From assembly GCA_951406725.2 (NCBI GenBank), contig OX597841.1:23684001-23748000 (forward strand): a stretch of 64,000 nt of DNA, read 5' to 3'. Below, piece after piece: positions 4,050-63,762 of the stretch. Numbering within the stretch: the first letter of the stretch is position 1; the number at the start of each line of letters is the position of its first letter. This DNA comes from Octopus vulgaris (Eukaryota). Below the pieces are notes generated by a model. That model worked only from the letters and a program-made list of their open reading frames with translations. It ran no database searches and was not told the origin of the DNA. The position numbers and the translations under genes are program-made.

Positions 4050-4115
4050 ATGTCTCGTCACTATATGCCTGAAAGGCGGTTCGCACCCGACCCCAATGAT
4101 CAGAACGGCAGAATG
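4050..4115 (+). CDS. Candidate upstream/first exon (MSRHYMPERRFAPDPNDQNGRM), possibly of CHTOP
   Basis: Unique CpG-containing sequence with ATG at 4050, 22 open codons and a perfect donor ATG|GTAAGT at 4115/4116. Phase 0 would join in frame to acceptor 47032 (ISNK-MAQVP). No homology recognised. Confidence 0.3.
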
Positions 4116-46996: not shown

Positions 46997-47043
46997 TTAA
47001 TATCCTCTGTGTTTTATCATTCTCTTTGCAGATATCCAATAAG

Positions 47044-47105
47044 ATGGCTCAAGTCCCTGCTAAGATAGTGCTAAAGAGCACTACAAGGATGTCACTGAAT
47101 GACCG
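47044..47105 (+). CDS. CHTOP: CHTOP first conserved coding exon (exon spans 47032-47105)
   Basis: Acceptor TTCTCTTTGCAG|47032, AAGATGG start, and donor CG|GTGAG. MAQVPAKIVLKSTTRMSLNDR matches the CHTOP N-terminus as recalled (KVVLKSTTKMSLNER). Confidence 0.93.
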
Positions 47106-47526
47106 GTGAGAAAATATTGCCTTCCGTTTGGAAATTGATTTTATTTCAACTTGGCTTTGCTCAGGCAGATCATATATATATATATGTATATATATCTATA
47201 TATAAATATATATATATATTTATAAATATTATATATATATTATAAATATTATATATATATATTTGATATATTATAAAAATTATATATAATTTTATATATT
47301 GTGAATATATTTTATATATTACAAATATATATATTTTATATATATATATTATAAACATATTATGTATATTTTTATATATATAAAGGAAGTATGCTTTCAA
47401 AATGGTCTGCGAAATAAATATATATATTTGAATAAAGTTAAGTTTATGAAAATGCAACAAAAGTGCTACCCTGATGACTTATTATGTGGGTTGGTGGCTC
47501 TGGCGGCGGCCACAGCAGCATCGGTT

Positions 47527-47806
47527 GTGGGACTCGGTCGTCGAGGGGGAGAGGTGAGGGTGTGGGTGAGTGTAGAGGGGGCCCTGTGCGTGGCGTCTTG
47601 ACTCGGGCTGTGATGTCGGAGGGGGCCCTGGCCCACTCTTCCGTTGCCTCCTCGTCCATGGTATGATGGGCCGCAATCTCTCACCCCCGTGCGTCTCGCT
47701 CCGAGTTGTTCATGGCCACGCCCTCTTTTGGGTTTACTCCGCTACACTACATTCCACCCTCACTCCCTGCCTCCTCACCACCCTGTGTCTCTTCTCGACT
47801 CCCCAC
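47527..47806 (+). promoter_or_regulatory. Predicted long GC-rich intronic RNA stem-loop
   Basis: Eight short helices in nested order, e.g. GUGAGGGUG 47554 / CACCCUCAC 47755, GCGUGGC 47588 / GCCACGC 47715, ACUCGGG 47601 / UCCGAGU 47700. Confidence 0.6.
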
Positions 47807-48213
47807 TTGCCATCCTTCTCCATTTCAGCATTCTCTGTCATCACCATCGTCATCATCTTTCTGCCATCAACATGTCCTCAAAGACTGATTCTCTCCCTCC
47901 TTGTCGATTCTTGTCCACAACTTGCCAGCCAGCCAGCCAGCCAACCAACTGACTAACCAGCCAGCCAGCCAGCTGGGTGGTGACACACAACAGTTGCCTC
48001 TCTTTTCTTTTGTTCTTTCTTTCTTTCTTGCTCTCTTCCTCTGTTGTTGTGTTGCCTCACGTCAGCCCACAGTCACAGTGGTAGCCACATCTGAGCTTAA
48101 TTCCAAAAAGGGCAAAAAAAAAAAATAAATACCACATAATATCTATACATGTCCATGTATATACACTCTCTCAATACACACATACACACACACATATATG
48201 CATATAAATATAT

Positions 48214-48294
<81 letters not shown>

Positions 48295-48441
48295 TAAATG
48301 TATACGTGTGTATAACATAGTTGTGTGCATGTATTGTATAAAATGTATGCACATACTGTGGTAAGTGTATACATTCCAGCTCTGATCCTAAAATGCTACA
48401 AAGTGGTGTGTAGAATTTACATGTGTATATAAATGTTTGTA

Positions 48442-48475
<34 letters not shown>

Positions 48476-48529
48476 TATATGGACGCACGTTTCTGGATTA
48501 GAGTCATAAGATTAATTTCCTTTATCAAC

Positions 48530-48701
48530 ATAATATTCCGATAAATATATCTAGAAATGCTAGGAAATCTTACCCTCCATATTTCCGACCAAGCGACGTG
48601 GATATGCTGATTAGCTTCTGTATGTTCCGATGTCGCTTGGTCGGAAATATAAGAAGGTAAGATTTCCTAGCGTTTCTTAGATTTATTTACCGGAATATTA
48701 T
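48530..48701. repeat. Imperfect inverted repeat (~70-bp arms)
   Basis: ATAATATTCCG...CTAGGAAATCTTACC...ATATTTCCGACCAAGCGAC / GTCGCTTGGTCGGAAATAT...GGTAAGATTTCCTAG...CGGAATATTAT. Confidence 0.85.
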
Positions 48702-48719
48702 ATATGTATATATATATAT

Positions 48720-49296
48720 ATTCTTTTATTTGTTTCAGTCATTTGACTGCAGCCATCCTGGAGCACAACAATTAGTTGAACAAACCGATCCTAGTACTTA
48801 TTCTGTCGGAATCTTTTGCTGAACTGCTAAGTTACGGGGGAGATAGTAAACACACCAGCATCGGTTATCAAGCGATCGGGTGGAGGGACAAACACAGACA
48901 CACAAACATATACATATTTGTATATGACGGGCTTCTTTCGGTTTCCATCTACCAAATCCATTCACAAGGCTTTGGTCGGCCCAAAGCTATTCTTTGTAAG
49001 CCTAGTACTTATTCTGTCGGAATCTTTTGCTGAACTGCTAAGTTACGGGGACATAGTAAACACACCAGCATCGGTTATCAAGCGATCGGGTGGAGGGACA
49101 AACACAGACACACAAACATATACATATTTGTATATGACGGGCTTCTTTCGGTTTCCATCTACCAAATCCATTCACAAGGCTTTGGTCGGCCCAAAGCTAT
49201 AGCAGAAGACACTTCCCCAAGGTGCCACGCAGTGGGATGAACCCAGAACCATGTAGTTAGTAAGCAAGATTCTTACCATGCAGCCACTCATGCACC
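48720..49296 (-). mobile_element. Family-B SINE (minus) with internal 210-bp duplication
   Basis: CTAGTACTTATTCTGTCGGAATC at 48791 and 49001. Confidence 0.85.
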
Positions 49297-49999
49297 TTAA
49301 TCCGTTCGTGGCCGTTTGCCAGCTCTGTCTGGCACCTGTGCAGGTGGCACGTAAAAAGCACCTACTACACTCACGGAGTGGTTGGCATTAGGAAGGGCGT
49401 CCAGCCGTAGGAACACTTCCAAATCTGACTGGGCCTGATGAAGCCTTCCGGCTTCACAGACCCCAGTTAAACCGTCCAACCCATGCTAGCATGGAAAGCG
49501 GACGCTAAACGATGATGATGATGTGCTAGCCTGTTGGAATACCCTGGTCTGTACCTTGCTGTACTCAAGAGGACCCATCCTCCACAGTAGAAGCATTAAG
49601 GCTGCATCTCTTGGTGAAGAGGATTGGCCTGCAAAAGTTTTGTGCTGGTGCCTCATGAAAGTGCCTGTGCCAATGGTATGTATATGGCGGTGCCCCAGCA
49701 TGGCCACAGCTCATGAGCTGAAACTAGAATCAATCATATGCACGCTCGTGCCAGTGCCGCTTGAAAAACACCCTTCGCACACTGTAAAGTGGTTGGCATT
49801 AGGAAGGGCATCCAGCTGTAGAAACCAAACCAAATTGCACTGGAATCCGGTGCGGCTCTCTGGTCTGGCTTGCCAGCTCCAACCCATGCCAGCATGGAAA
49901 AACACATCAAAGGATGATGATGATGATTTTACCGCACCAGGCAACTGAGAGCAAAAACAAATGCAGCATAAGGAAAATACAACATATTTCTCCCTAGAA

Positions 50000-50500
50000 A
50001 AGTGCCTGCAAACATCCAGATTAGATATATCAATGAAACAGGCCCCTTTTGCAAAGTTTTCCTCTTCCCCAATGCCCGCTCTGATATGGTCTTGGAAAAG
50101 TGACTGCATTCCAGGTTCAGATGGGAGTCCTTAGCTCATGCTGCCTTGCTCTTGATAGCAAGTGCCAATGAGCCATTGGCCCTATGGGGCTGTCCATCAC
50201 CACTTCTCATAAGGCAGCCAAAGGGTTTCAAATCAGGAGGTATTTGGGGCTTAAAAGATCGTCTTTGGGGAGTGGTTTACACCTTTTTCTTGCTGCATGT
50301 GTATTGCTCTCTCTTTCTTCCTTTGGACGTGTACCTGATGTCCTCATCTGCGATGCATCATACAGTGGACTCTGCCACCTTGAGATTGGAGGCCCTGCAA
50401 TATGCTAAATTTTTCAATGTTTGTGTCCAGGGTCTTTTTCCTGGTAAAACTCACCCACTCCGATGACTACAGTTTACTAAAGTTGTGTTCACAAATGGCT
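50000..50500 (-). mobile_element. Possible highly decayed Tc1/mariner transposase remnant
   Basis: PPDLKPFG on the minus strand near 50240 resembles SPDLNPLD; otherwise weak. Confidence 0.3.
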
Positions 50501-51148
50501 GGCATACCTGATATATATATATTTATATATATATGTATATTTGCATGCATGTTTATATACACTCTCAGACACCTCAGTAGCCAAGAAAAATATATTACCA
50601 AAATAATAATAGTAATATTATTAATAATAATATTATAATGTTCTATGCTTGCATGAAAAAAAAAATAACAATATGATAAATATTGAGGATCAAATCCAGA
50701 GCTGGGATCGTCAGAAATAAGATTTCTGGTTTTGCTGCAACTCCCTTATCCCTTGCCATCACAACATTCTCTCTCTGTCATACACACTTTTGTGTAAGCC
50801 CATTGCTTTCTTAAATACCATACACCTTGAGAGAGAGTGAGGACGTACGCAGCCTTGATGACGGAACCTAACCCATCCACATCGATCCTGAATGGCTGCG
50901 TCTCTGCCACTCTTGGCTCATCACCATTTCTACTACCTCTGTTCTTCTGCTGGCACACTGTTCTTTCTTTCTACCCTCATTGTGTCACACTGTGCCATTT
51001 CTGTTTTCACCATACTACTGTTCTACCTTCTTTTGGACTTTGGTACGACCTCTTCACTACGGCCCCTATTCCGTCCCGCACCTTGTCCAATGGGTCTACA
51101 TCCTGCCACTCCTACTCCCTAATCACTTCCACTCACCTGTATCTAACA

Positions 51149-51722
51149 CTAGCAGTATTGCCCGGCTCAACGGGGGTTTCAGGGAGTCGCTGGCGATGTA
51201 TCGCGATGATCAAAAATCCGGCCTGCTAAAATTTGGTTAAAGTGATTCAAACTGCAGACTCAATGCAAAATGGTCACATTTAATTCAAAGCGTTAAAAAT
51301 GTTATGAAAACAATTGGTATTTGTTCACAAAGTCCAAACGATTAATACGAAAAAACCCTCCAGGCTACATCCTGAAAATTCATTTCTTTACCGAATTTCT
51401 ACAATGTTTACGGCGATTCGTTTTTATATCTTGATTTTTTATTTTCCATGCAATTTACGCATGCTTGCACACGTGGTGAACACAGTTCATGTCAAACAGC
51501 TGACTGAGTAAAGTTCACTATTCAATGCATGGGATAAGGCCTAAACAAACACATTATCGATTTTTGCACTTGTGAGATGAATTTCGAAACAGAAATAGCG
51601 CAGTTCAATTTTCATTTGCCTAAACTTTAAGTGACCCATTTTTGATGGTTCTACGATTTGTTGGCTAGATGTGCCGGGAAGTTAAACACACAGACACACA
51701 AGTTGAGTTCTATATATATAGA
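51149..51722 (-). mobile_element. Non-autonomous Helitron
   Basis: Plus strand begins A|CTAGCAGTATTGCCCGG and ends TATATATATAGA|T, i.e. TC...CTAG on the minus strand. Confidence 0.8.
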
Positions 51723-51839
51723 TGTCTCTAACTCTTTTAAGATGGAATTGTGTGGATCATAGAAATTTAGCTGCCGTTTCTAACAGGCTAACCGACTTTA
51801 TTGAGACTTTCTAGTTGCACTGTACTATATTTAGTTATC

Positions 51840-52800
51840 GCTGTTGAACCCTAGGTCTGCTCTGATCCAGATGTTTCAGCTGTTACCTTCCTTTATTCAG
51901 GCAAAGTCTACCTAAGCCTACATTACTCAATGTATCCTTCCTTGTTCTTGTTGCTTTGCTCCAGAGGTGACCATCATGTCATTTATTTAGACATAATGTA
52001 TCTAGGACTACACTATCCATTGTGTCCTTCCTAGCTCTTGTGGTTTAACCCTAGGTTGGCTCTGATCCAGCAAACCTATGATCATCCTGGCTTCTATTGA
52101 AATGGATTGTGTCTCTGACTGCATTATTTAATGTGCCATTCCTAGTTTTTGGTCCAGAGGTGACCATCCTGTCATATAGTTTAACATAGTGTATCTAGGA
52201 CTACATTATCTAATGTGTCGTTCCTAGTTCTTGTTTAGCCACAGGTCAGTCCTGATCCAGCAGACCTATGATCAAAGATATTCCAGCTGTGACCATCCTG
52301 TCTTTTATTATTCAGGCATAGTGTATCTAGGAGTACATTATCTAATGTGTCCTTCCTTGTTGTTGTTTAGCCACAGGTCAGTCCTGATCCAGCAGACCTA
52401 TGATCAAAGACATTCCAGCTGTGACCATCCTGTCTTTTATTATTCATGCATCGTGTATCTAGGAGTACATTATCTAATGTGTCCTTCCTTGTTGTTGTTT
52501 AGCCACAGGTCAGTCCTGATCCAGCAGACCTATGATCAAAGATGTTCCAGCTGTGACCATCCTGTCTTTTATTATTCATGCATAGTGTATCTAGGAGTAC
52601 ATTATCTAATGTGTCCTTCCTTGTTGTTTAGCCACAGGTCAGTCCTGATTCAGCATGCTCCAAAGTACTACTGGAGGTAACTAGCCTGTCGTTAATTCAG
52701 ACATAGTGTACCTAAGAGTACATCATCTAATGTGTCCTTCGGGTCTTGTTTAGCCCCAGGTCAGTCTCGATCCAGCATGATCGTAAGTGCCACCAGTGGT
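51840..52800. repeat. Degenerate-to-young tandem repeat (132-bp period in 52200-52660)
   Basis: TACATTATCTAATGTGTC at 52202, 52334 and 52466. Segment 51886-52074 is the source of the 61140 array. Confidence 0.85.
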
Positions 52801-53277
52801 GACTGTTCTGTCTTTTATTCTGGCAGTGTGTGTAAGCTGACACCATTCCGTCCTTCCTTCCTTGCTTCTATTTCTAGCAAGTCAAAGTGACTCTACAGCT
52901 GCTGCTTTGTCGATTTCTCGTTAGGAATTTAGTTAAAACAAACAAATACTAAAAATAATATTTAGAGTAAAATAGGCAACAGTCAACCTGAATGGCTGTC
53001 TGTTTCTCTCCCAAATTGCTGTTGTGGACACCAGTCGTTAGTGAACTAATTAACGAGTGACAAGCATTAGTATGGTACACTGGTAGTTCAGTTAGTTACC
53101 AGGTCGGGTGTCAATTGGAGTAATTCTACACCTCCCCCACCATCAAAGCTGGCCTTGGTCTTTTTTTTTTAGTTTTTGTTTTTGTTCCATGTTTCAGTCA
53201 TTTGACCGTGGCCATGCTGGGGCACTTGTGCATGTTTCAGTCATTTGACTGCAGTCGTGTTGGGGCACAGCTTTCAC

Positions 53278-53735
53278 ATCAGGCCCCCACCACTAGGCTC
53301 CAGCCACCAGGCTCTGGCCAGCAGGTATCACTACCAGGCTCCAGCCATCAGGCCCCCACAACTTGGCTCCAGCCATCAGGCCCCCACCACTAGGCTCTGG
53401 CCAGCAGGTTCCACCACCAGGCTCCAGCCATCAGGCTCTGGCCAGCAGGTATCACAACCAGGCTCTAGCCAGCAGGTCCCACCACCAGGCTCCAACCAGC
53501 AGGTCCCACCACCAGGCTCCCTCCACAAGGCTCCAGCCATCAGGCCCCATCCACCGGCTCCAGCCATCAGGCCCCCACCACAAGGCTCCAGCCATCAGGT
53601 TCTGGCCAGCAGGTATCACTACCAGGTCCCAACCATCAAACCCCAACCACCAGGCCCCAACAGCAGGTTCCAGCCACCAGGCTCCGACCATCAGGCCCCA
53701 ACCACCAGGCTCCAGCCATCAGGCCCCCAACCACC
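53278..53735. repeat. GC-rich minisatellite (CCACCAGGCTCCAGCCATCAGGC-type units)
   Basis: Seen directly. Confidence 0.9.
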
Positions 53736-54192
53736 AGTCTGTGGACCATTTCATACTTGGCGATGCAGAAAGAATATAAAAAGGTTGACGGGGCGGCGGG
53801 GACTGCTGCCACTGTTCCAGTTCGTTTCTACTTCCGTATCACTCTCTCCTCATCACTCATCATTCTCATCTCATCATTCGCCCCCATTTGTGACACCCCT
53901 GAAAAGACACCTCAGTTTGAAGCTGAACATAAATCAGGGTGTCCACCCCACTCTACCATCTATCTCTCTCTTGAAATAAGGGAGTGTGCAGCATGGAATT
54001 TCAAAAGCTCAGGTAGTATATATATATACATCTACATTGCTCTTATATTTCATATGTATATAAAATATATATGTGTGTATATATATAATATATATATGTG
54101 TATATATATATATCTTAAGTGCTTATTTGATTGCATTGGAAAAAAAAAGCTTTTATCAAGCAACAACATTTTGCCAACAAATCATAATAATG

Positions 54193-54224
<32 letters not shown>

Positions 54225-55162
54225 TTGCAAATGAAAAACGATGTGGTAAAATGAATAAAAATTTGCAAAATCCTAAAACCCTCAAAACGGATAAACATAT
54301 ATTTATGCAAATATATGTAATATATTATTATGTTTAATGTGTGTATAATTAAATGAAAACAGCATGTGGCATAAGAAAAATTTGAAGAAAAAAAAAAAGA
54401 GAATCGAAAAACTTGCTCAAGGCAAGATTCTCATGCTGAGTGGCCTCAACACAACATACACTTTGTATTTTTTGCCCTGCATAATTTTTGCTCACGATAT
54501 TTCTGCTGCTGTTTCCACAACTCCACCCCTGCCTTGTGCTGCCTTGCCCTTGCCCTTCTCTTCTCTTCTCTCTGACCCCCATCATTGATGTCTGTCTTAG
54601 CTGCAGTGGCCCAGCACAGTTGTGGAACAGTACAGCATCCCCTCATCATCATCATCGTCATCGTCATCATCTGACCACCTCTTGTAAGACAAAGGAACAG
54701 GCACTTGTTTATCTTCAAAGTGCTCTCTCTGTCTCTCTCCCTCCCTCCCTCCCTCTGTCTCTCTCTTTCTTTCTCTCACTCAGCTGTTTGGTCCCTTTTT
54801 ATCCGATCTGGTGTATGTCTCGTTTTTTGTTTGGACTTCAATTGTATTCCCCCCCATAACTGGCTTCATTTACTGGGTCAAGGGTCGAGTCTCATCTCAG
54901 GTGCTTTCAGTTTTGCATCTTTGCTTTGAATCCCCACATTCACTCTTTCCTCCTTCCACTCTCTCTCTCTTCCATCCTTCCTCTCTCATTTACAATAGTT
55001 TCTGCTTTTTTATGGGCTTATTAGGGTTCACCATTCTGTACCCTTACTTAATCCACTTCTCCTTTGCACATCCACTTCTGCTCCTTCTCTCTCTCTCTGT
55101 CACACAGTGTGTGTGTATGTGTTTACATATATAGATGTATATATATATATATACATACATAC

Positions 55163-55193
<31 letters not shown>

Positions 55194-55217
55194 GATATAT
55201 ATATATACCTACATGTG

Positions 55218-55265
<48 letters not shown>

Positions 55266-55279
55266 TTTATATATATATA

Positions 55280-55669
55280 CTAGCAGTATCGCCCGACGTT
55301 GTTCGGGTTTGTTTCGACCCGCTGGAATTGGAATTTTTGAAAAGTAAAAATTTTGCATTATGTAGCTTGTTATTCTCTTCAAGTGAACATTTTTCTGGTT
55401 GAAATACACCGAAAAGTGGCGACACAGCAGTGAAAAAAATCGTAAAAAATAGGGATTTTCATAGAAAAAAAGCACCTTTTTGATGTAAATAATTTTTGGT
55501 GTTAACATGGTCTGATTTGAATTTTATCTTCTACGGAAGGAAGATCAACCCTTCTATCATACTCTCAATTTTGGTCAACTTGTGCCGCAGGGTCTCGGAG
55601 GAGATAGTGTTAGTTGAAGGCTACCAAACCTGGCGCACACAGACAACTTCAGCTTTATATAGAGAGAGA
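55280..55669 (-). mobile_element. Non-autonomous Helitron
   Basis: A|CTAGCAGTATCGCCCGACGTTGTTCGGG ... ACAACTTCAGCTTTATATAGAGAGAGA|T; termini are reverse complements of 26649-27043. Confidence 0.85.
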
Positions 55670-56125
55670 TAACACACACACATCTATGTATGTATGTATG
55701 TATATATGTACATCTGTCCACTTCTTGCCATATTTTTATCCTTCACTTCCTACACACTCTCACACACAGACACACACACACCTTCTTAGCTTACTATTTT
55801 CTTTCAACAATTGACACTGTCATATATGTATATGTTTGCGTGTCTATGTGTGTAAAGAGAAAGTGTGCTGATAGGCGGAGTAAAAGCCTTTGAAGTGAGA
55901 GAGGGAAATCGTAAAATATTGAGTTTTTTCAAATTTTTGCTTAATTGGGGGTCAAATTGAAAGAAATTTATATGCCATGACCGAATCGAATCTACTTCAA
56001 AAAATCATGGGTAAATTCTAATTGAAGAAATTCTATATTGTAGAATTGTACTAAAAAGGAACATGGGAACAGGCAGAGAAAATCTGCCTTTTATCATAAG
56101 AGATATATATACATGTGTATATATG

Positions 56126-56156
<31 letters not shown>

Positions 56157-56190
56157 TTAAAAAAGATGTGGAACACGAGTTGTGATAGAT

Positions 56191-56489
56191 AAAAAAGGAA
56201 ATGAAGAAAATGCTGACAAAATAATTTAAGTAAGGGAGAGTGTATTTAATTAGGTGAAAGTTCTTTTTACCGGTTGCGCATTTGTTATGCTTATCAAAAG
56301 ATATTTTTTTAAGTGAGATAGAGTTCCTTTCTGATAAAAAATCTATCAGAAAGGAACTCTATCTCACTTAAAAAAATATCTTTTGATAAGCATAACAAAT
56401 GCGCAACCGGTAAAAAGAACTTTCACCTAATTAAATACACTCTCCCTTACTTAAATTATTTTGTCAGCATTTTCTTCATTTCCTTTTTT
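56191..56489. repeat. Perfect palindrome with 146-bp arms and a 7-nt loop (Penelope-like terminus)
   Basis: 56191-56336 is the reverse complement of 56344-56489 with no mismatch seen; loop AAAAATC. Confidence 0.95.
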
Positions 56490-56869
56490 TATATATATAT
56501 AGATATGTGCATATATTTATGTTTGTGTGTATGTCTACATGTGTGTGTGTATATGTATATGCACACAATCACAAATCTGAAACACTAATCACACATCAAC
56601 ATATCCCCAAAGCGCTCATTCTTTCTGTTTGTTTCTTCTTTCACCTCACCCCCTCACCTTTTTTCCTTCTTTTCTATGTCGCATCTTATTTACTTTGTCT
56701 TATTCTCCTAACTATTTTGAGATACGACCTGAGCGTTTCGTAGGTTTTATTATCACAGCCTTACCTAGATATGTTTCAGGGAAATTTATACAAGTTATGT
56801 TGTATTCATAGATAGATTTGTGGGGCTTCTAGTGACTCCGTTAATCGTCCAATGTATAGCAGCACTTGG

Positions 56870-57175
56870 CCCTTCAGCATATAGCAACCCAATCAGTTCT
56901 TCAGCATATAGCAACCCCAGTTGGTCCTTCAGCATATGGCAACTCAATCAGTTCTTCAGCATATAGCAGCACCAGTTGGTCCTTCAGCATATAGCAGCCC
57001 CAATCAGTTCTTCAGCATATAGCAACCCTAATTGGTCCTTCAGCATATAGCAACCCAATCAGTTCTTCAGCATATCAGCATATAGCAGCCCCAATCAGTT
57101 CTTCAGCATATAGCAACCCCAATTGGTCCTTCAGCATATAGCAACCCAATCAGTTCTTCAGCATATAACAACCCC
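56870..57175. repeat. ~27-bp minisatellite (TTCAGCATATAGCAACCC...)
   Basis: Seen directly. Confidence 0.9.
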
Positions 57176-58060
57176 TGTCAGCCCTGCAGTATACCAAATT
57201 TCCATAACCAATACTGATTTATTTCTGGTAATTCTACAGTGGCAAGCTAGCGGAATCGTTACTGTACTGGACAAAAATGCTCAGAAGCATTTCTCTGGCT
57301 CCTATGTTCTTAAGTTCAAATGCCACCGTGGTCAACTTTTGATTTTCATCCTGGGGTCAATGTAATCAACTGACCCCTTTCCCCTTAAATTTGAAGCCTT
57401 TTTGCTTATAATAGAATTATTAATGCTAAATCTTATTTTATTTTCGTAAAGTATACTAGCCATCTCAATATGGCTAACCCCTAAGGGTGGGTGTTACTGT
57501 AGCTTGTAGCCCCAGGAGATCATCGTCTCCAGCTGGCTTTAGGCACACTTTCTGTGCTCTTATGGTATTTGTAAAGGGAGGTCATCCCTCTCTCGTAAGC
57601 CTAAGTGATACGCACGGACTGCAGTTTCGGGGTTGTTGCCTCTTGTCTACGCACGGACTGCAATTTCGGGGTTGTTGCCTCTTGTCAACGTACGGCAATC
57701 ACCGGTTTTACATCTCGTTCAGAGATTTATTATTGCTTATTTTATTTTATTTTGAGAAAACTTCGAAGCCATTCAATCTCTTCCTTTCTTGCTGTTATCA
57801 TCATCCCATCATCATCATCATCACCACTTTCATTTCTCTTGTCATCGTTATAATCCTTGTCATTATCATCAGTTCTTTTACTCTCCCTCATCAGCTCCTT
57901 AATCATCATTTCTCCGACATCGTCGTCACATCACTTTGTTGAGACGAAAGGATTTTTCTTCTTTTTTTCCTTCTTGTTTGAAACTAATTGAAACGAGCAA
58001 AAAAAAAACCCCCCAAAAAAAGACAAAGTGAAAAACACAACCATCATGACGATTGATATG

Positions 58061-58091
<31 letters not shown>

Positions 58092-58468
58092 ATAATAATG
58101 TTGGCAAAATAAGCATATGAAATATATAAATATATATTTGCAAATACATAAGGGCAAAATGAAAAATATTAAAGAAAATAAACAAAGGCCTAAGTTTATG
58201 ATTATTTTGGGCTCATGTAATATGTTGTTGTGATTTTATGGTTGTGTGTGCCACAAGCCACATTTAACGACCACAATGTGTCGCCGTGGCTCTCCTTTCC
58301 CCCTCTCTCTTTTTCTCTCACTCTCCGCTCCCCCTTTCTCTCTCTTTCTGTTACCCCCCCCCCCCCCGGCCCCTTGCCGTGGCCCCGTTACCCCCTCTCC
58401 GTCCCCACCCACCCTCAGTTCGTAAGTGATGAATATACTTTACCGCCCTCCTTTCCCCCCACATGAAG

Positions 58469-58622
58469 CTTCACGAACATACAGAAGAGTCGTCCACCCG
58501 TGACGGTCCAGAACATTCGTGCCAAGATGGCGGCACAGCAGCAGGCGTCGGTGCGGAACCGTAGGCTAGCCCAGCAGATGGCTAACCGACCGAGCGTGAT
58601 CGCGGCCCTGAAGATCAAGAGG
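58469..58622 (+). CDS. CHTOP: CHTOP second conserved coding exon
   Basis: Acceptor ...ATGAAG|C completes CG+C (Arg), and the exon ends at donor AGG|[57 protein letters not shown] matches the CHTOP motif [25 protein letters not shown] as recalled. Confidence 0.95.
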
Positions 58623-58669
58623 GTAAGACTGCATTTTTTCATCTCCTTTTGGCTCTGTCTTACTGGCTA

Positions 58670-59200
58670 TCTACCTCTGTCTGTCTGTGTCTCTATCTTT
58701 TATCCTCTTGTCTGTTTGTCTATCCATCTGTCTATCTGTGTTTATCTCTCTCTGTCTATCTATCTATCAATCCATCTGTCTGTCTGTCTATCTATCCGTC
58801 TAGCTATCTGTCTGTCTACCTCTCTATCTATCTATCTATCTATCCATCTGTCTATCTATCTGTCTGTCTATCTATCTATCTGTCTATCTGTCTGTCTGTC
58901 TATCTATCTGTCTGTCTATCTATCTATCTGTCTGTCTATCTATCTATCCATCTGTCTATCTATCTATCTGTCTGTCTATCTATCTATCCATCTGTCTATC
59001 TATCTGTCTGTCTGTCTATCTGTCTGTCTATCTATCTATCCATCTGTCTATCTATCTGTCTGTCTATCTATCCATCTGTCTATCTATCCATCTGTCTATC
59101 TATCCATCTGTCTATCTATCCATCTGTCTATCTATCTGTCTGTCTATCCATCAGTCTATCTATCTATCCATCTGTCTGTCTATCTGTCCGTCTGTCTCTT
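58670..59200. repeat. (TCTA/TCTG/TCCA)n microsatellite
   Basis: Seen directly. Confidence 0.95.
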
Positions 59201-59796: not shown

Positions 59797-60887
59797 TCCC
59801 GTGCCGGTGGCACGTAAAAGGCACCATCCGATCGTGGCCGTTTGCCAGCCCCGCCTGGCACCTGTGCCGGTGGCACGTAAAAAGCACCATCCGATCGTGG
59901 CCGTTTGCCAGTCCTGTCTGGCCCCCATGCCAGTAGCACGTAAAAAGCACCATCCGACCATGGCCGTTTGCCAGCCTCGCCTGGCCCCCGTGCCGGTAGC
60001 ACGTAAAAAGCACCATCCGATTGTGGCCGTTTGGCAGCCCCGTCTGGCACCTGTGCCGGTGGCACGTAAAAAGCACCATCCGACCGTGGCCGTTTGCCAG
60101 CCCCGCCTGGCACGTAAAAAGCACCATCCGATCGTGGCCGTTTGCCAGTCCTGTCTGGCCCCCATGCCAGTAGCACGTAAAAAGCACCATCCGACCATGG
60201 CCGTTTGCCAGCCTCGCCTGGCCCCCGTGCCGGTGGCACGTAAAAAGCACCATCCGACCATGGCCGTTTGCCAGCCCCGCCTGGCACCTGTGCCGGTGGC
60301 ACGTAAAAAGCACCATCCGATCGTGGCCGTTTGCCAGTCCTGTCTGGCCCCCATGCCGGTAGCACGTAAAAAGCACCATCCGATTGTGGCCGTTTGCCAG
60401 CCCCGTCTGGCACCTGTGCTGGTGGCACGTAAAAAGCACCATCCGACCGTGGCCGTTTGCCACCCCCGTCTGGCACCTGTGCTGGTAGCATGTAAAAAGC
60501 ACCATCCGACCATGGCCGTTTGCCAGTCCCGTCTGGTACCTGTGCCGGTGGCATGTAAAAAGCACCATCCGACCGTGGCCGTTTGGCAGCCCCATCTGGC
60601 CCTCGTGCCGGTGGCACGTAAAAAGCACCATCCAACCGTGGCCGTTTGCCAGTCCCGCCTGGGCCCCGTAAAAAGCACCATCCGATCGTGGCCGTTTGCC
60701 AGCCCCGTCTGGCACGTAAAAAGCACCCACTACACTCACAGAGAGGTTGGCGTTAGGAAGGGCATCCAGCCGTAGAAGCACTGCCAGATCAGACTGGTCC
60801 TGGTGCAGCCTTCTGGCTTCCTAGACCCCAGTTGAACCATCGAACTCATGCTAGCATGGAGAACGGACGCTAAATGATGATGATGAT
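59797..60887 (+). mobile_element. Family-C retroelement with internal 63-bp unit expanded to about 15 copies
   Basis: AAAGCACCATCCGA at 59881, 59944, 60007 and onward, followed by the normal 3' end with (GAT)n. Confidence 0.9.
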
Positions 60888-61139: not shown

Positions 61140-63351
61140 GGCGCAGGAGTGGCTGTGTGGTAAGTAGCTTGTTTACCAACCACTTGGTTCCGGGTTCAGA
61201 TTTGCTGGATCAGAGCCAACCTAGGGTTAAACCACAAGAGCTAGGAAGGGCACAATGGATAGTGTAGTCCTAGATACATTATGTCTAAATAAAGGACATG
61301 GGTCGCCTCTGGGGCAAAGCAACAAGAACAAGGAAGGATACATTGAGTAATGTAGGCCTAGGTAGACTTTGTCTGAATAAAGGAAGGCGCAGGAGTGGCT
61401 GTGTGGTTAGTAGCTTGCTTACCAACCACATGGTTCTGGGTTCAGATTTGCTGGATCAGAGCCAACCTAGGGTTAAACCACAAGAGCTAGGAAGGGCACA
61501 ATGGATAGTGTAGTCCTAGATACATTATGTCTAAATAAAGGACATGGGTCACCTCTGGGGCAAAGCAACAAGAACAAGGAAGGATACATTGAGTAATGTA
61601 GGCCTAGGTAGACTTTGTCTGAATAAAGGAAGGCGCAGGAGTGGCTGTGTGGTTAGTAGCTTGCTTACCAACCACATGGTTCCGGGTTCAGATTTGCTGG
61701 ATCAGAGCCAACCTAGGGTTAAACCACAAGAGCTAGGAAGGGCACAATGGATAGTGTAGTCCTAGATACATTATGTCTAAATAAAGGACATGGGTCACCT
61801 CTGGGGCAAAGCAACAAGAACAAGGAAGGATACATTGAGTAATGTAGGCCTAGGTAGTCTTTGTCTGAATAAAGGAAGGCGCAGGAGTGGCTGTGTGGTT
61901 AGTAGCTTGCTTACCAACCACATGGTTCCGGGTTCAGATTTGCTGGATCAGAGCCAACCTAGGGTTAAACCACAAGAGCTAGGAAGGGCACAATGGATAG
62001 TGTAGTCCTAGATACATTATGTCTAAATAAAGGACATGGGTCACCTCTGGGGCAAAGCAACAAGAACAAGGAAGGATACATTGAGTAATGTAGGCCTAGG
62101 TAGACTTTGTCTGAATAAAGGAAGGCGCAGGAGTGGCTGTGTGGTTAGTAGCTTGCTTACCAACCACATGGTTCCGGGTTCAGATTTGCTGGATCAGAGC
62201 CAACCTAGGGTTAAACCACAAGAGCTAGTAAGGGCACAATGGATAGTGTAGTCCTAGATACATTATGTCTAAATAAAGGACATGGGTCACCTCTGGGGCA
62301 AAGCAACAAGAACAAGGAAGGATACATTGAGTAATGTAGGCCTAGGTAGACTTTGTCTGAATAAAGGAAGGCGCAGGAGTGGCTGTGTGGTTAGTAGCTT
62401 GCTTACCAACCACATGGTTCCGGGTTCAGATTTGCTGGATCAGAGCCAACCTAGGGTTAAACCACAAGAGCTAGGAAGGGCACAATGGATAGTGTAGTCC
62501 TAGATACATTATGTCTAAATAAAGGACATGGGTCACCTCTGGGGCAAAGCAACAAGAACAAGGAAGGATACATTGAGTAATGTAGGCCTAGGTAGACTTT
62601 GTCTGAATAAAGGAAGGCGCAGGAGTGGCTGTGTGGTTAGTAGCTTGCTTACCAACCACATGGTTCCGGGTTCAGATTTGCTGGATCAGAGCCAACCTAG
62701 GGTTAAACCACAAGAGCTAGGAAGGGCACAATGGATAGTGTAGTCCTAGATACATTATGTCTAAATAAAGGACATGGGTCACCTCTGGGGCAAAGCAACA
62801 AGAACAAGGAAGGATACATTGAGTAATGTAGGCCTAGGTAGACTTTGTCTGAATAAAGGAAGGCGCAGGAGTGGCTGTGTGGTTAGTAGCTTGCTTACCA
62901 ACCACATGGTTCCGGGTTCAGATTTGCTGGATCAGAGCCAACCTAGGGTTAAACCACAAGAGCTAGGAAGGGCACAATGGATAGTGTAGTCCTAGATACA
63001 TTATGTCTAAATAAAGGACATGGGTCACCTCTGGGGCAAGCAACAAGAACAAGGAAGGATACATTGAGTAATGTAGGCCTAGGTAGACTTTGTCTGAATA
63101 AAGGAAGGCGCAGGAGTGGCTGTGTGGTTAGTAGCTTGCTTACCAACCACATGGTTCCGGGTTCAGATTTGCTGGATCAGAGCCAACCTAGGGTTAAACC
63201 ACAAGAGCTAGGAAGGGCACAATGGATAGTGTAGTCCTAGATACATTATGTCTAAATAAAGGACATGGGTCACCTCTGGGGCAAGCAACAAGAACAAGGA
63301 AGGATACATTGAGTAATGTAGGCCTAGGTAGACTTTGTCTGAATAAAGGAA
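61140..63351 (+). repeat. Chimeric 246-bp tandem array x 9 (SINE-B head plus inverted copy of 51886-52074)
   Basis: Units start at 61140, 61386, 61632 and onward; they are nearly identical. Confidence 0.95.
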
Positions 63352-63762
63352 GGCGCAGGAGTGGCTGTGTGGTAAGTAGCTTGCTTATCAACCACATGGT
63401 TCCAACGGATTCAGTCCCACTGCATGACACTTTGGGCAAGTGTCTTCTACTATAGCCTCGGGCCGATCAAAGCCTTGTGAGTGGATTTGGTAGACGGAAA
63501 CTGAAAGGAGCCTGTCGTATATATGTATATATATATGCGTGTGTGTGTTTGTGTGTATGTGTTTGTCTCCCTAGCATTGCTTGACAACCGATGCTGGTGT
63601 GTTTATGTCCCCGTCACTTAGCAGTTCGGCAAAAGGGACCGATAGAATAAGTACTGGGCTTACAAAAAAGAATAAGTCCCGGGATCGAGTTGCTCGACTA
63701 AAGGCGGTGCTCCAGCATGGCCACAGTCAAATGACTGAAACAAGTAAAAAGAGTAAAGAGAG
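63352..63762 (+). mobile_element. Family-B SINE, full length, closing the array
   Basis: Complete head, body and AAAGAGT tail. Confidence 0.9.

Follow-up and report, generated by a model that had tools for sequence, protein, structure and literature searches.

Human CHTOP limits its own level by retention of intron 2, and the resulting RNA is degraded by nonsense-mediated decay (NMD; PMC5175361, available in part). In the accessible part of that paper, the retained intron comes after exon 2 (81 nt) and carries an in-frame stop at the 5' end. Regulation maps to exon 2 and to stem-loops towards the 5' side of the intron, and a fragment close to the intron 3' end is dispensable (PMC5175361). Decoy exons have been described in large retained introns of SF3B1 (intron 4), OGT, ARGLU1 and DDX39B (PMC6097662, available in part). 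Exons with a distant branch point and an AG-exclusion zone include PTBP1 exon 11 and alpha-tropomyosin exon 3 (PMC1431707, available in part).

We analysed a 64-kb stretch of Octopus vulgaris DNA (the window, 64,000 nt; all positions refer to it). The gene encodes the RNA-export factor CHTOP: the protein sequence of its exon 3 matches the CHTOP proteins from Octopus vulgaris, O. sinensis and Argonauta with 100% identity. The first-pass annotation had rightly taken the host for a cephalopod, and had given neither the gene name nor the known retained intron. A Pfam search with the two exon peptides assigned no family; PF13865, the C-terminal part of CHTOP, lies outside the 64-kb window. The coding exon at 4050..4115 ends in the donor ATG/GTAAGT, and its 5' end is left undefined. 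It encodes an N-terminal extension that is wholly unlike in Octopus and cuttlefish proteins, and the first intron behind it (4116-47031) spans about 43 kb.

Table 1. Features of the CHTOP locus, in window positions
Feature	Positions	Strand	Basis
Upstream CHTOP coding exon (longer N-terminus)	4050..4115	+	tblastn, P0003/P0004 residues 1-22; sequence
CHTOP exon 2, 74 nt	47032..47105	+	sequence; loose end of contig X3-25 (junction) matches its 3' end
Host intron, 11,363 nt	47106..58468	+	RNA contigs; phase/codon match in distant loci
Stretch identical in organisms A and B, with predicted distant branch A58267	58151..58297	+	organism A/B comparison
159-nt AG-free zone with 127-nt C-rich/CU tract	58258..58416 (tract 58290-58416)	+	sequence
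Spare acceptor CAG (AG 58417-58418), TTC (58419-58421) and donor GTAAGT (58422-58427), candidate decoy	58416..58427	+	sequence; identical in organism B
3' splice site in use: TGAAG, with predicted branch A58442 (-26) and a C-rich 20-nt tract	58438..58468	+	X3 junction contig; YTNAY scan; distant loci
CHTOP exon 3, 154 nt, phase 2 to phase 0	58469..58622	+	protein identity; spliced ends at 58622

Exon 2 carries a Met at 47044 and ends in a phase-2 donor, CCG/GTGAGA. If the intron after it is retained, TGA is read at once, i.e. the stop is the first intron codon; such an in-frame stop follows automatically from a phase-2 GTGAG donor. The intron occupies the same phase-2 position and codon in the seven distant loci whose contig includes exon 2. 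It probably lies at the codon position of human intron 2 as well, and the octopus intron appears to be the homologue of the human one. Both belong to the same gene, follow a short exon with the start codon and open on an in-frame stop, and both species have RNA that keeps this intron (in octopus, its 3' end) but has a later intron removed. They differ in length (1,641 nt in human, 11,363 nt in octopus), and the accessible part of the human study describes no decoy at the 3' end of the intron (PMC5175361).

At the 3' end of the octopus intron, two 3' splice sites stand 50 nt apart. A recheck of the sequence returned tract, CAG, TTC, GTAAGT and AAG exactly where the first-pass annotation had placed them. 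The tract is 88% pyrimidine over 127 nt (73 C, 39 T), and the AG-free zone varies in length, not only between species but also within organism A. U2AF binds C-rich tracts poorly. The spare acceptor had been called strong, which stands for its pyrimidine share; it is strong by pyrimidine count only, since the tract is U-poor, with 12 C and 1 T in the 16 nt ahead of the CAG, where the exon 2 acceptor has 11 T. The donor, described as perfect, does read GTAAGT, but fits the 9-nt consensus at 6/9 positions, equal to the real donors 47105 and 58622. The predicted reading frames all held on translation: joining 47105 to 58419 gives ...NDRS-stop, with an in-frame TAA at 58423-58425, joining 47105 to 58469 keeps the CHTOP frame open, and including TTC between exons 2 and 3 adds one Ser. 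A box C/D snoRNA (GTGATGA...ATGA) was rejected here, as the candidate spans only about 41 nt and lacks an Rfam match. Rfam covariance models gave no match over 58100-58470, and across the intron and 13 other loci none reached the gathering score.

The AAG at 58466-58468 is spliced to exon 2 in one of the three RNA runs described below (contig X3-25, depth 255.8), which bears out the earlier view of it as a real, weak acceptor. A YTNAY scan predicts separate layouts for the two sites: a distant branch A58267, a branch-point consensus at the upstream edge of the AG-free zone, serving the first AG at 58418, and a near branch A58442 serving TGAAG. The latter, at -26, falls within the usual branch-to-acceptor distance of 19-35 nt (PMC5378181, available in part). 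The spare donor starts 20 nt upstream of A58442, leaving a remainder of 47 nt up to 58468. In vertebrates the least distance from donor to branch is about 40-50 nt. The 47-nt remainder is therefore unlikely to serve as an intron. Around A58267 the stretch 58200-58300 showed no significant fold against shuffles (z -0.61). No A>G difference that would indicate RNA editing at the acceptor is listed among the contigs, which are insensitive to it. The TGA inside TGAAG is a stop in the frame of exon 3. Two poly(A)-signal hexamers lie at 58168-58182, where organism B shows no change, and contigs read through both.

To follow this intron end in RNA, we compared 4 of the 24 listed runs with 58105-58715, using contigs throughout. 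Three are RNA-type, judged so from their spliced contigs, and the fourth is the DNA run X18 (organism C), which gave repeat matches only, though it contains 0.51 of the words of the region, and is silent on conservation. All three RNA-type runs, from three studies and two organisms, contain contigs that run unspliced across 58418 and 58422 into exon 3 (X1-1, depth 22.7; X3-21, 12.6; X13-9, 31.9). These contigs begin at 58105 or 58151; X1-1 and X13-9 reach 58622, and X3-21 reaches 58497. RNA keeping the 3' end of the intron behind the start-codon exon, as expected of a retention switch, was found in 3/3 RNA runs. Its intron portion continuous with exon 3 is the last 320-360 nt, and RNA from an internal start site or spliced at a far-upstream acceptor would give the same picture. 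As these runs are also spliced at 58622 (exon 3 donor AGG/GTAAGA), contaminating genomic DNA is an unlikely source: spliced loose ends at this position occur in all three, a contig entering the next intron in none, and the single contig X1-1 carries both the intron end and the splice after exon 3. Missing contigs past 58622 are no proof in themselves, since a filter can remove contigs. The first-pass annotation had thus pointed correctly to unproductive RNA at this site, but the form that we observed, retention of the intron end, was absent from its options.

A contig joining exon 2 to exon 3 exists in X3 only, and X1 and X13 show none. No loose end or joint at 58419 or 58421 was found in the listed contigs (7/7 of X3, 4/4 of X13, 8/9 of X1), and since contigs drop rare forms, this rules out only major use of these sites. 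On one side, several of the pieces are short (29 nt in exon 3 for X3-21, 29 nt past 58622 for X1-1, 30 nt on the compared stretch for X3-25) and fall just under the 31 nt of the tool's bridging rule. At the level of sequence words, 11 of the listed RNA-type runs from organism A, which come from 3 studies, contain 0.84-0.88 of the 43 words of 58200-58660, and another contains 0.70, all of them ranked and selected by their share of these very words; about 0.29 could come from exon 3 alone and about 0.91 from the exon together with the intron end. The donor at 58622 has at least three downstream partners, two of them with similar depth in X3 and X13. X1-1 joins it to a SINE-derived in-frame exon, as in O. 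sinensis isoform X5 (P0004), which lies outside the window. This retained form is the sole on-locus contig of X1 over 58105-58622, and the main spliced forms do not appear there. The short truncated peptides had no candidate among the stored proteins, where they would possibly fall below the length limit of the collection.

Organism B differs from organism A by 8 substitutions and 6 insertions (14 events), all within 58298-58411. There are no differences in 58151-58297 or 58412-58622, CAG-TTC-GTAAGT is identical, and the tract, though altered, is still AG-free and 87% pyrimidine. The chance of identity over the 57 nt is P of about 0.03 even at the inflated rate of the tract; it is weak evidence, because organism B is so close that exon 3 shows 0 differences. 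So far, the element has been found in two close octopus-type species.

We then looked at more distant animals. A metagenome scan gave 27 loci, of which 19 were scored, with acceptors deduced from the reading frame; left out were L004, L006, L011 and L012 (redundant with the L005 group), L015 and L018 (match at contig start) and L023 and L025 (no intron here). Eight of the scored acceptors are AAG, five of these TGAAG, and 11 are CAG. By protein similarity the loci fall into nine distant groups, and an AAG acceptor occurs in 5/9 of them, TGAAG in three. With an assumed AAG background of 5-15%, the binomial P for this recurrence is 3e-5 to 0.006, or 4e-4 to 0.02 with two similar groups merged, for groups that are not phylogenetically independent. 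As judged from these sequences, a weak acceptor at this intron recurs in other animals. Read-through open reading frames (P0011/P0013 and P0020) likewise imply, from their codons, non-YAG acceptors in bivalve-like sequences. In these very distant animals the intron ends in the rare acceptor TGAAG that octopus has, at 58464-58468 of the window, L002:1333-1337, L003:2995-2999, L016:2968-2972, L019:2170-2174 and L027:2968-2972, mostly after a C-rich tract.

Retention, too, may extend beyond octopus. L001 (152-2281), L022 (1-597) and L024 (1-2368) are transcript-like: the intron is kept and the downstream coding sequence is continuous, a pattern that suggests that other phyla retain the intron too. 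L022 shares 98% identity with L023, which is fully spliced, and is without introns that are present in its genomic relatives L020/L021, and it keeps a later intron as well. L001 and L024 have no genomic copy to compare.

A motif GAT.AATATAC occurs at 58428-58438 of the window and at -118 (L003), -240 (L026) and -30 (L024) from the acceptor, a post hoc and weak observation; L003 and L026 share 17 identical bases (E 0.002). In L014 (658-693) and L017, a pyrimidine tract and a second TGAAG lie 194 nt upstream of the acceptor, and use of this site would lead to a stop. It opens a 200-nt block that is 87% identical between both loci and is a candidate poison acceptor or decoy of that lineage.

What does the spare site do? 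The arrangement is real and unusual, and it sits at an intron known as regulatory in human. We favour the reading that CAG-TTC-GTAAGT is a rarely spliced decoy that lowers use of the TGAAG acceptor and favours intron retention, with a probability of roughly 45%. It is the simplest functional reading, as the unproductive RNA seen is the retained form. The AG-free C/CU tract and the distant branch A58267 would draw 3' splice-site factors to the CAG at 58418, while U1 on GTAAGT, 20 nt from A58442, would hinder the branch point needed by exon 3 (U1 versus U2). The 3-nt spacer and the 47-nt remainder would make the spare sites poor substrates, so that the intron would usually stall and be retained, with no more than leaky splicing at 58419. 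Neither the retained RNA, with its stop at the first intron codon, nor the leaky RNA, with its stop at 58423, would yield full protein, and both might be held in the nucleus or removed by NMD. The balance between retention and splicing would be tuned by the level of CHTOP, and octopus CHTOP probably has a feedback loop like the human one. For octopus we infer feedback and NMD by analogy, whereas for human they are described in the accessible part of PMC5175361.

The element resembles known decoy exons in that an acceptor is paired with a donor, the retained intron around them is large (>1 kb) and belongs to an RNA-processing gene, their use would bring in a stop, and the element is rarely or never found spliced (PMC6097662, available in part). 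It differs from the SF3B1 decoys, which are 29-56 nt long and deeply conserved in vertebrates, in being 3 nt long and in lying close to the terminal acceptor (47 nt away) and next to the branch point of that acceptor (PMC6097662). With distant-branch exons, as the accessible part of PMC1431707 presents them, it shares an AG-free zone of more than 150 nt, a branch consensus at the 5' end of that zone and a long CU/C tract; unlike those, its first AG is not productive, and the productive AG has a near branch. Against a decoy speak the position of the human cis-elements at the other end of the intron, the U-poor tract and the many CT tracts that octopus introns carry. Moreover, a weak acceptor may suffice by itself, since several distant groups have one without a tract-linked spare acceptor and donor. 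We consider it rather unlikely that both layers hold, namely a retained-intron switch common to animals through a conserved TGAAG and a non-spliced 3-nt decoy added in octopus as a brake.

The alternative that survives best is that the spare site is incidental: a C/CT microsatellite-like tract would end in CAG by chance, followed by a chance GTAAGT, and retention, itself real, would be set by the ancient weak TGAAG together with CHTOP binding elsewhere, as in human. We regard this as doubtful. The tract is variable in length and U-poor, no spare-site junction appeared in the three RNA runs, and the human cis-elements known from the accessible part of PMC5175361 lie at the opposite end of the intron. 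In addition, a tract-linked YAG-N(0-3)-GTRAG, including CAG-NNN-GTAAGT, was found in 0/9 distant groups. AG-N-GTAAGT without a tract does occur within 250 nt in L003 and L014 (2/9 groups; 3/500 shuffles), and is absent from their relatives L002 and L017. Chance fits less well with the standing of the site within the window, where 58418 ranks first of 2157 plus-strand YAG sites by 125-nt pyrimidine share. On both strands, only one of the 72 YAG sites with a pyrimidine share of at least 80% over 25 nt has a GTRAGW donor within 30 nt; this is 58418, and it adjoins the real acceptor. The branch-point consensus where the AG-free zone begins and the flanks that are unchanged in organism B also speak against chance.

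Next, the CAG could be a poison acceptor, joined to 47105 at a substantial, regulated rate through the distant branch, with the stop at 58423-58425 leading to NMD and GTAAGT of secondary importance. It would be the choice of scanning, as the first AG after the predicted distant branch (PMC1431707, available in part), and its stop lies 197 nt before the next junction, past the 50 nt used as the criterion for poison sites. The product would be hidden by NMD, and rare forms are lost from contigs; the lack in 3/3 RNA runs of a contig with 47105-58419, the junction that the first-pass annotation had proposed, is thus a weak negative. Still, no loose end marks 58419 and the retained contigs run unbroken across it, the known CHTOP route is retention, and the spare donor is left unexplained. 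We therefore think a poison acceptor unlikely as the main role, and possible as the leak beside the decoy.

The first-pass annotation had also offered TTC as a 3-nt microexon or the whole as a recursive-type site. A recursive splice site is an acceptor AG directly followed by a donor GT; with 3 nt between AG and GT, the site here is not one. A true microexon would add a Ser or, because its donor is too near the branch point of exon 3, be mutually exclusive with exon 3, at the cost of a frameshift. Its acceptor and donor are complete, and the long AG-free zone, the UCUC-rich tract and the frame-preserving length are like those of SRRM4/eMIC-dependent neural microexons (PMC8797185, available in part); a neural form could have escaped these runs, and a 3-nt bubble is easily lost from contigs. 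However, those exons have a UGC beside the acceptor (PMC8797185), and here the nearest TGC is at 58375-58377, 41-43 nt upstream of the AG. The downstream intron would be 47 nt long, with 20 nt from donor to branch, inclusion was seen in contigs of 0/3 RNA runs, and X3-24 is unbroken from 58468. Among relatives, 67 of the 85 stored proteins match the exon 2 motif and all 67 read R then F; 0/67 have a Ser or any other residue in between, although clustering at 90% can hide such forms. Taken together, a microexon is very improbable.

Finally, the motif might be a 5' hairpin arm, pairing with the used junction and the opening 11 nt of exon 3 so that the acceptor is masked, and its splice-site likeness would be secondary; this is the minimum-energy and centroid fold of 58410-58485, but at -7.5 kcal/mol it is matched by 41/200 shuffles (z -0.88), another fold wins in a slightly wider window and 13 other loci have no common structure, which makes it scarcely credible.

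In a literature search with most subscription papers outside reach, we found neither a description of this intron being retained with a conserved weak acceptor outside vertebrates nor one of octopus CHTOP regulation. If the decoy reading and its feedback are true, the CHTOP feedback intron described in human cells would exist in a mollusc too, and probably in many more animals, and the weak TGAAG acceptor would be an overlooked, very old cis-element. The 60 nt at the end of an 11-kb intron would also offer a compact test case for decoy-driven retention.

Other parts of the locus gave minor observations. Near the 5' end of the intron, a GC-rich stretch that does not look like a repeat (47460-47830) ends in an AG-free tract with a CAG at 47828. 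Its position resembles that of the CHTOP-binding region in human, but 47460-47760 folds no better than shuffles (z -0.15). In the intron 3' of exon 3, SINE-related tandem arrays occupy 59798-60720 and about 61140-63400, with units of about 63 nt and about 250 nt. Within the host intron, 56267-56413 forms a long, near-perfect inverted repeat with hairpin-type Rfam hits below gathering scores, and this repeat is a possible double-stranded RNA editing substrate.
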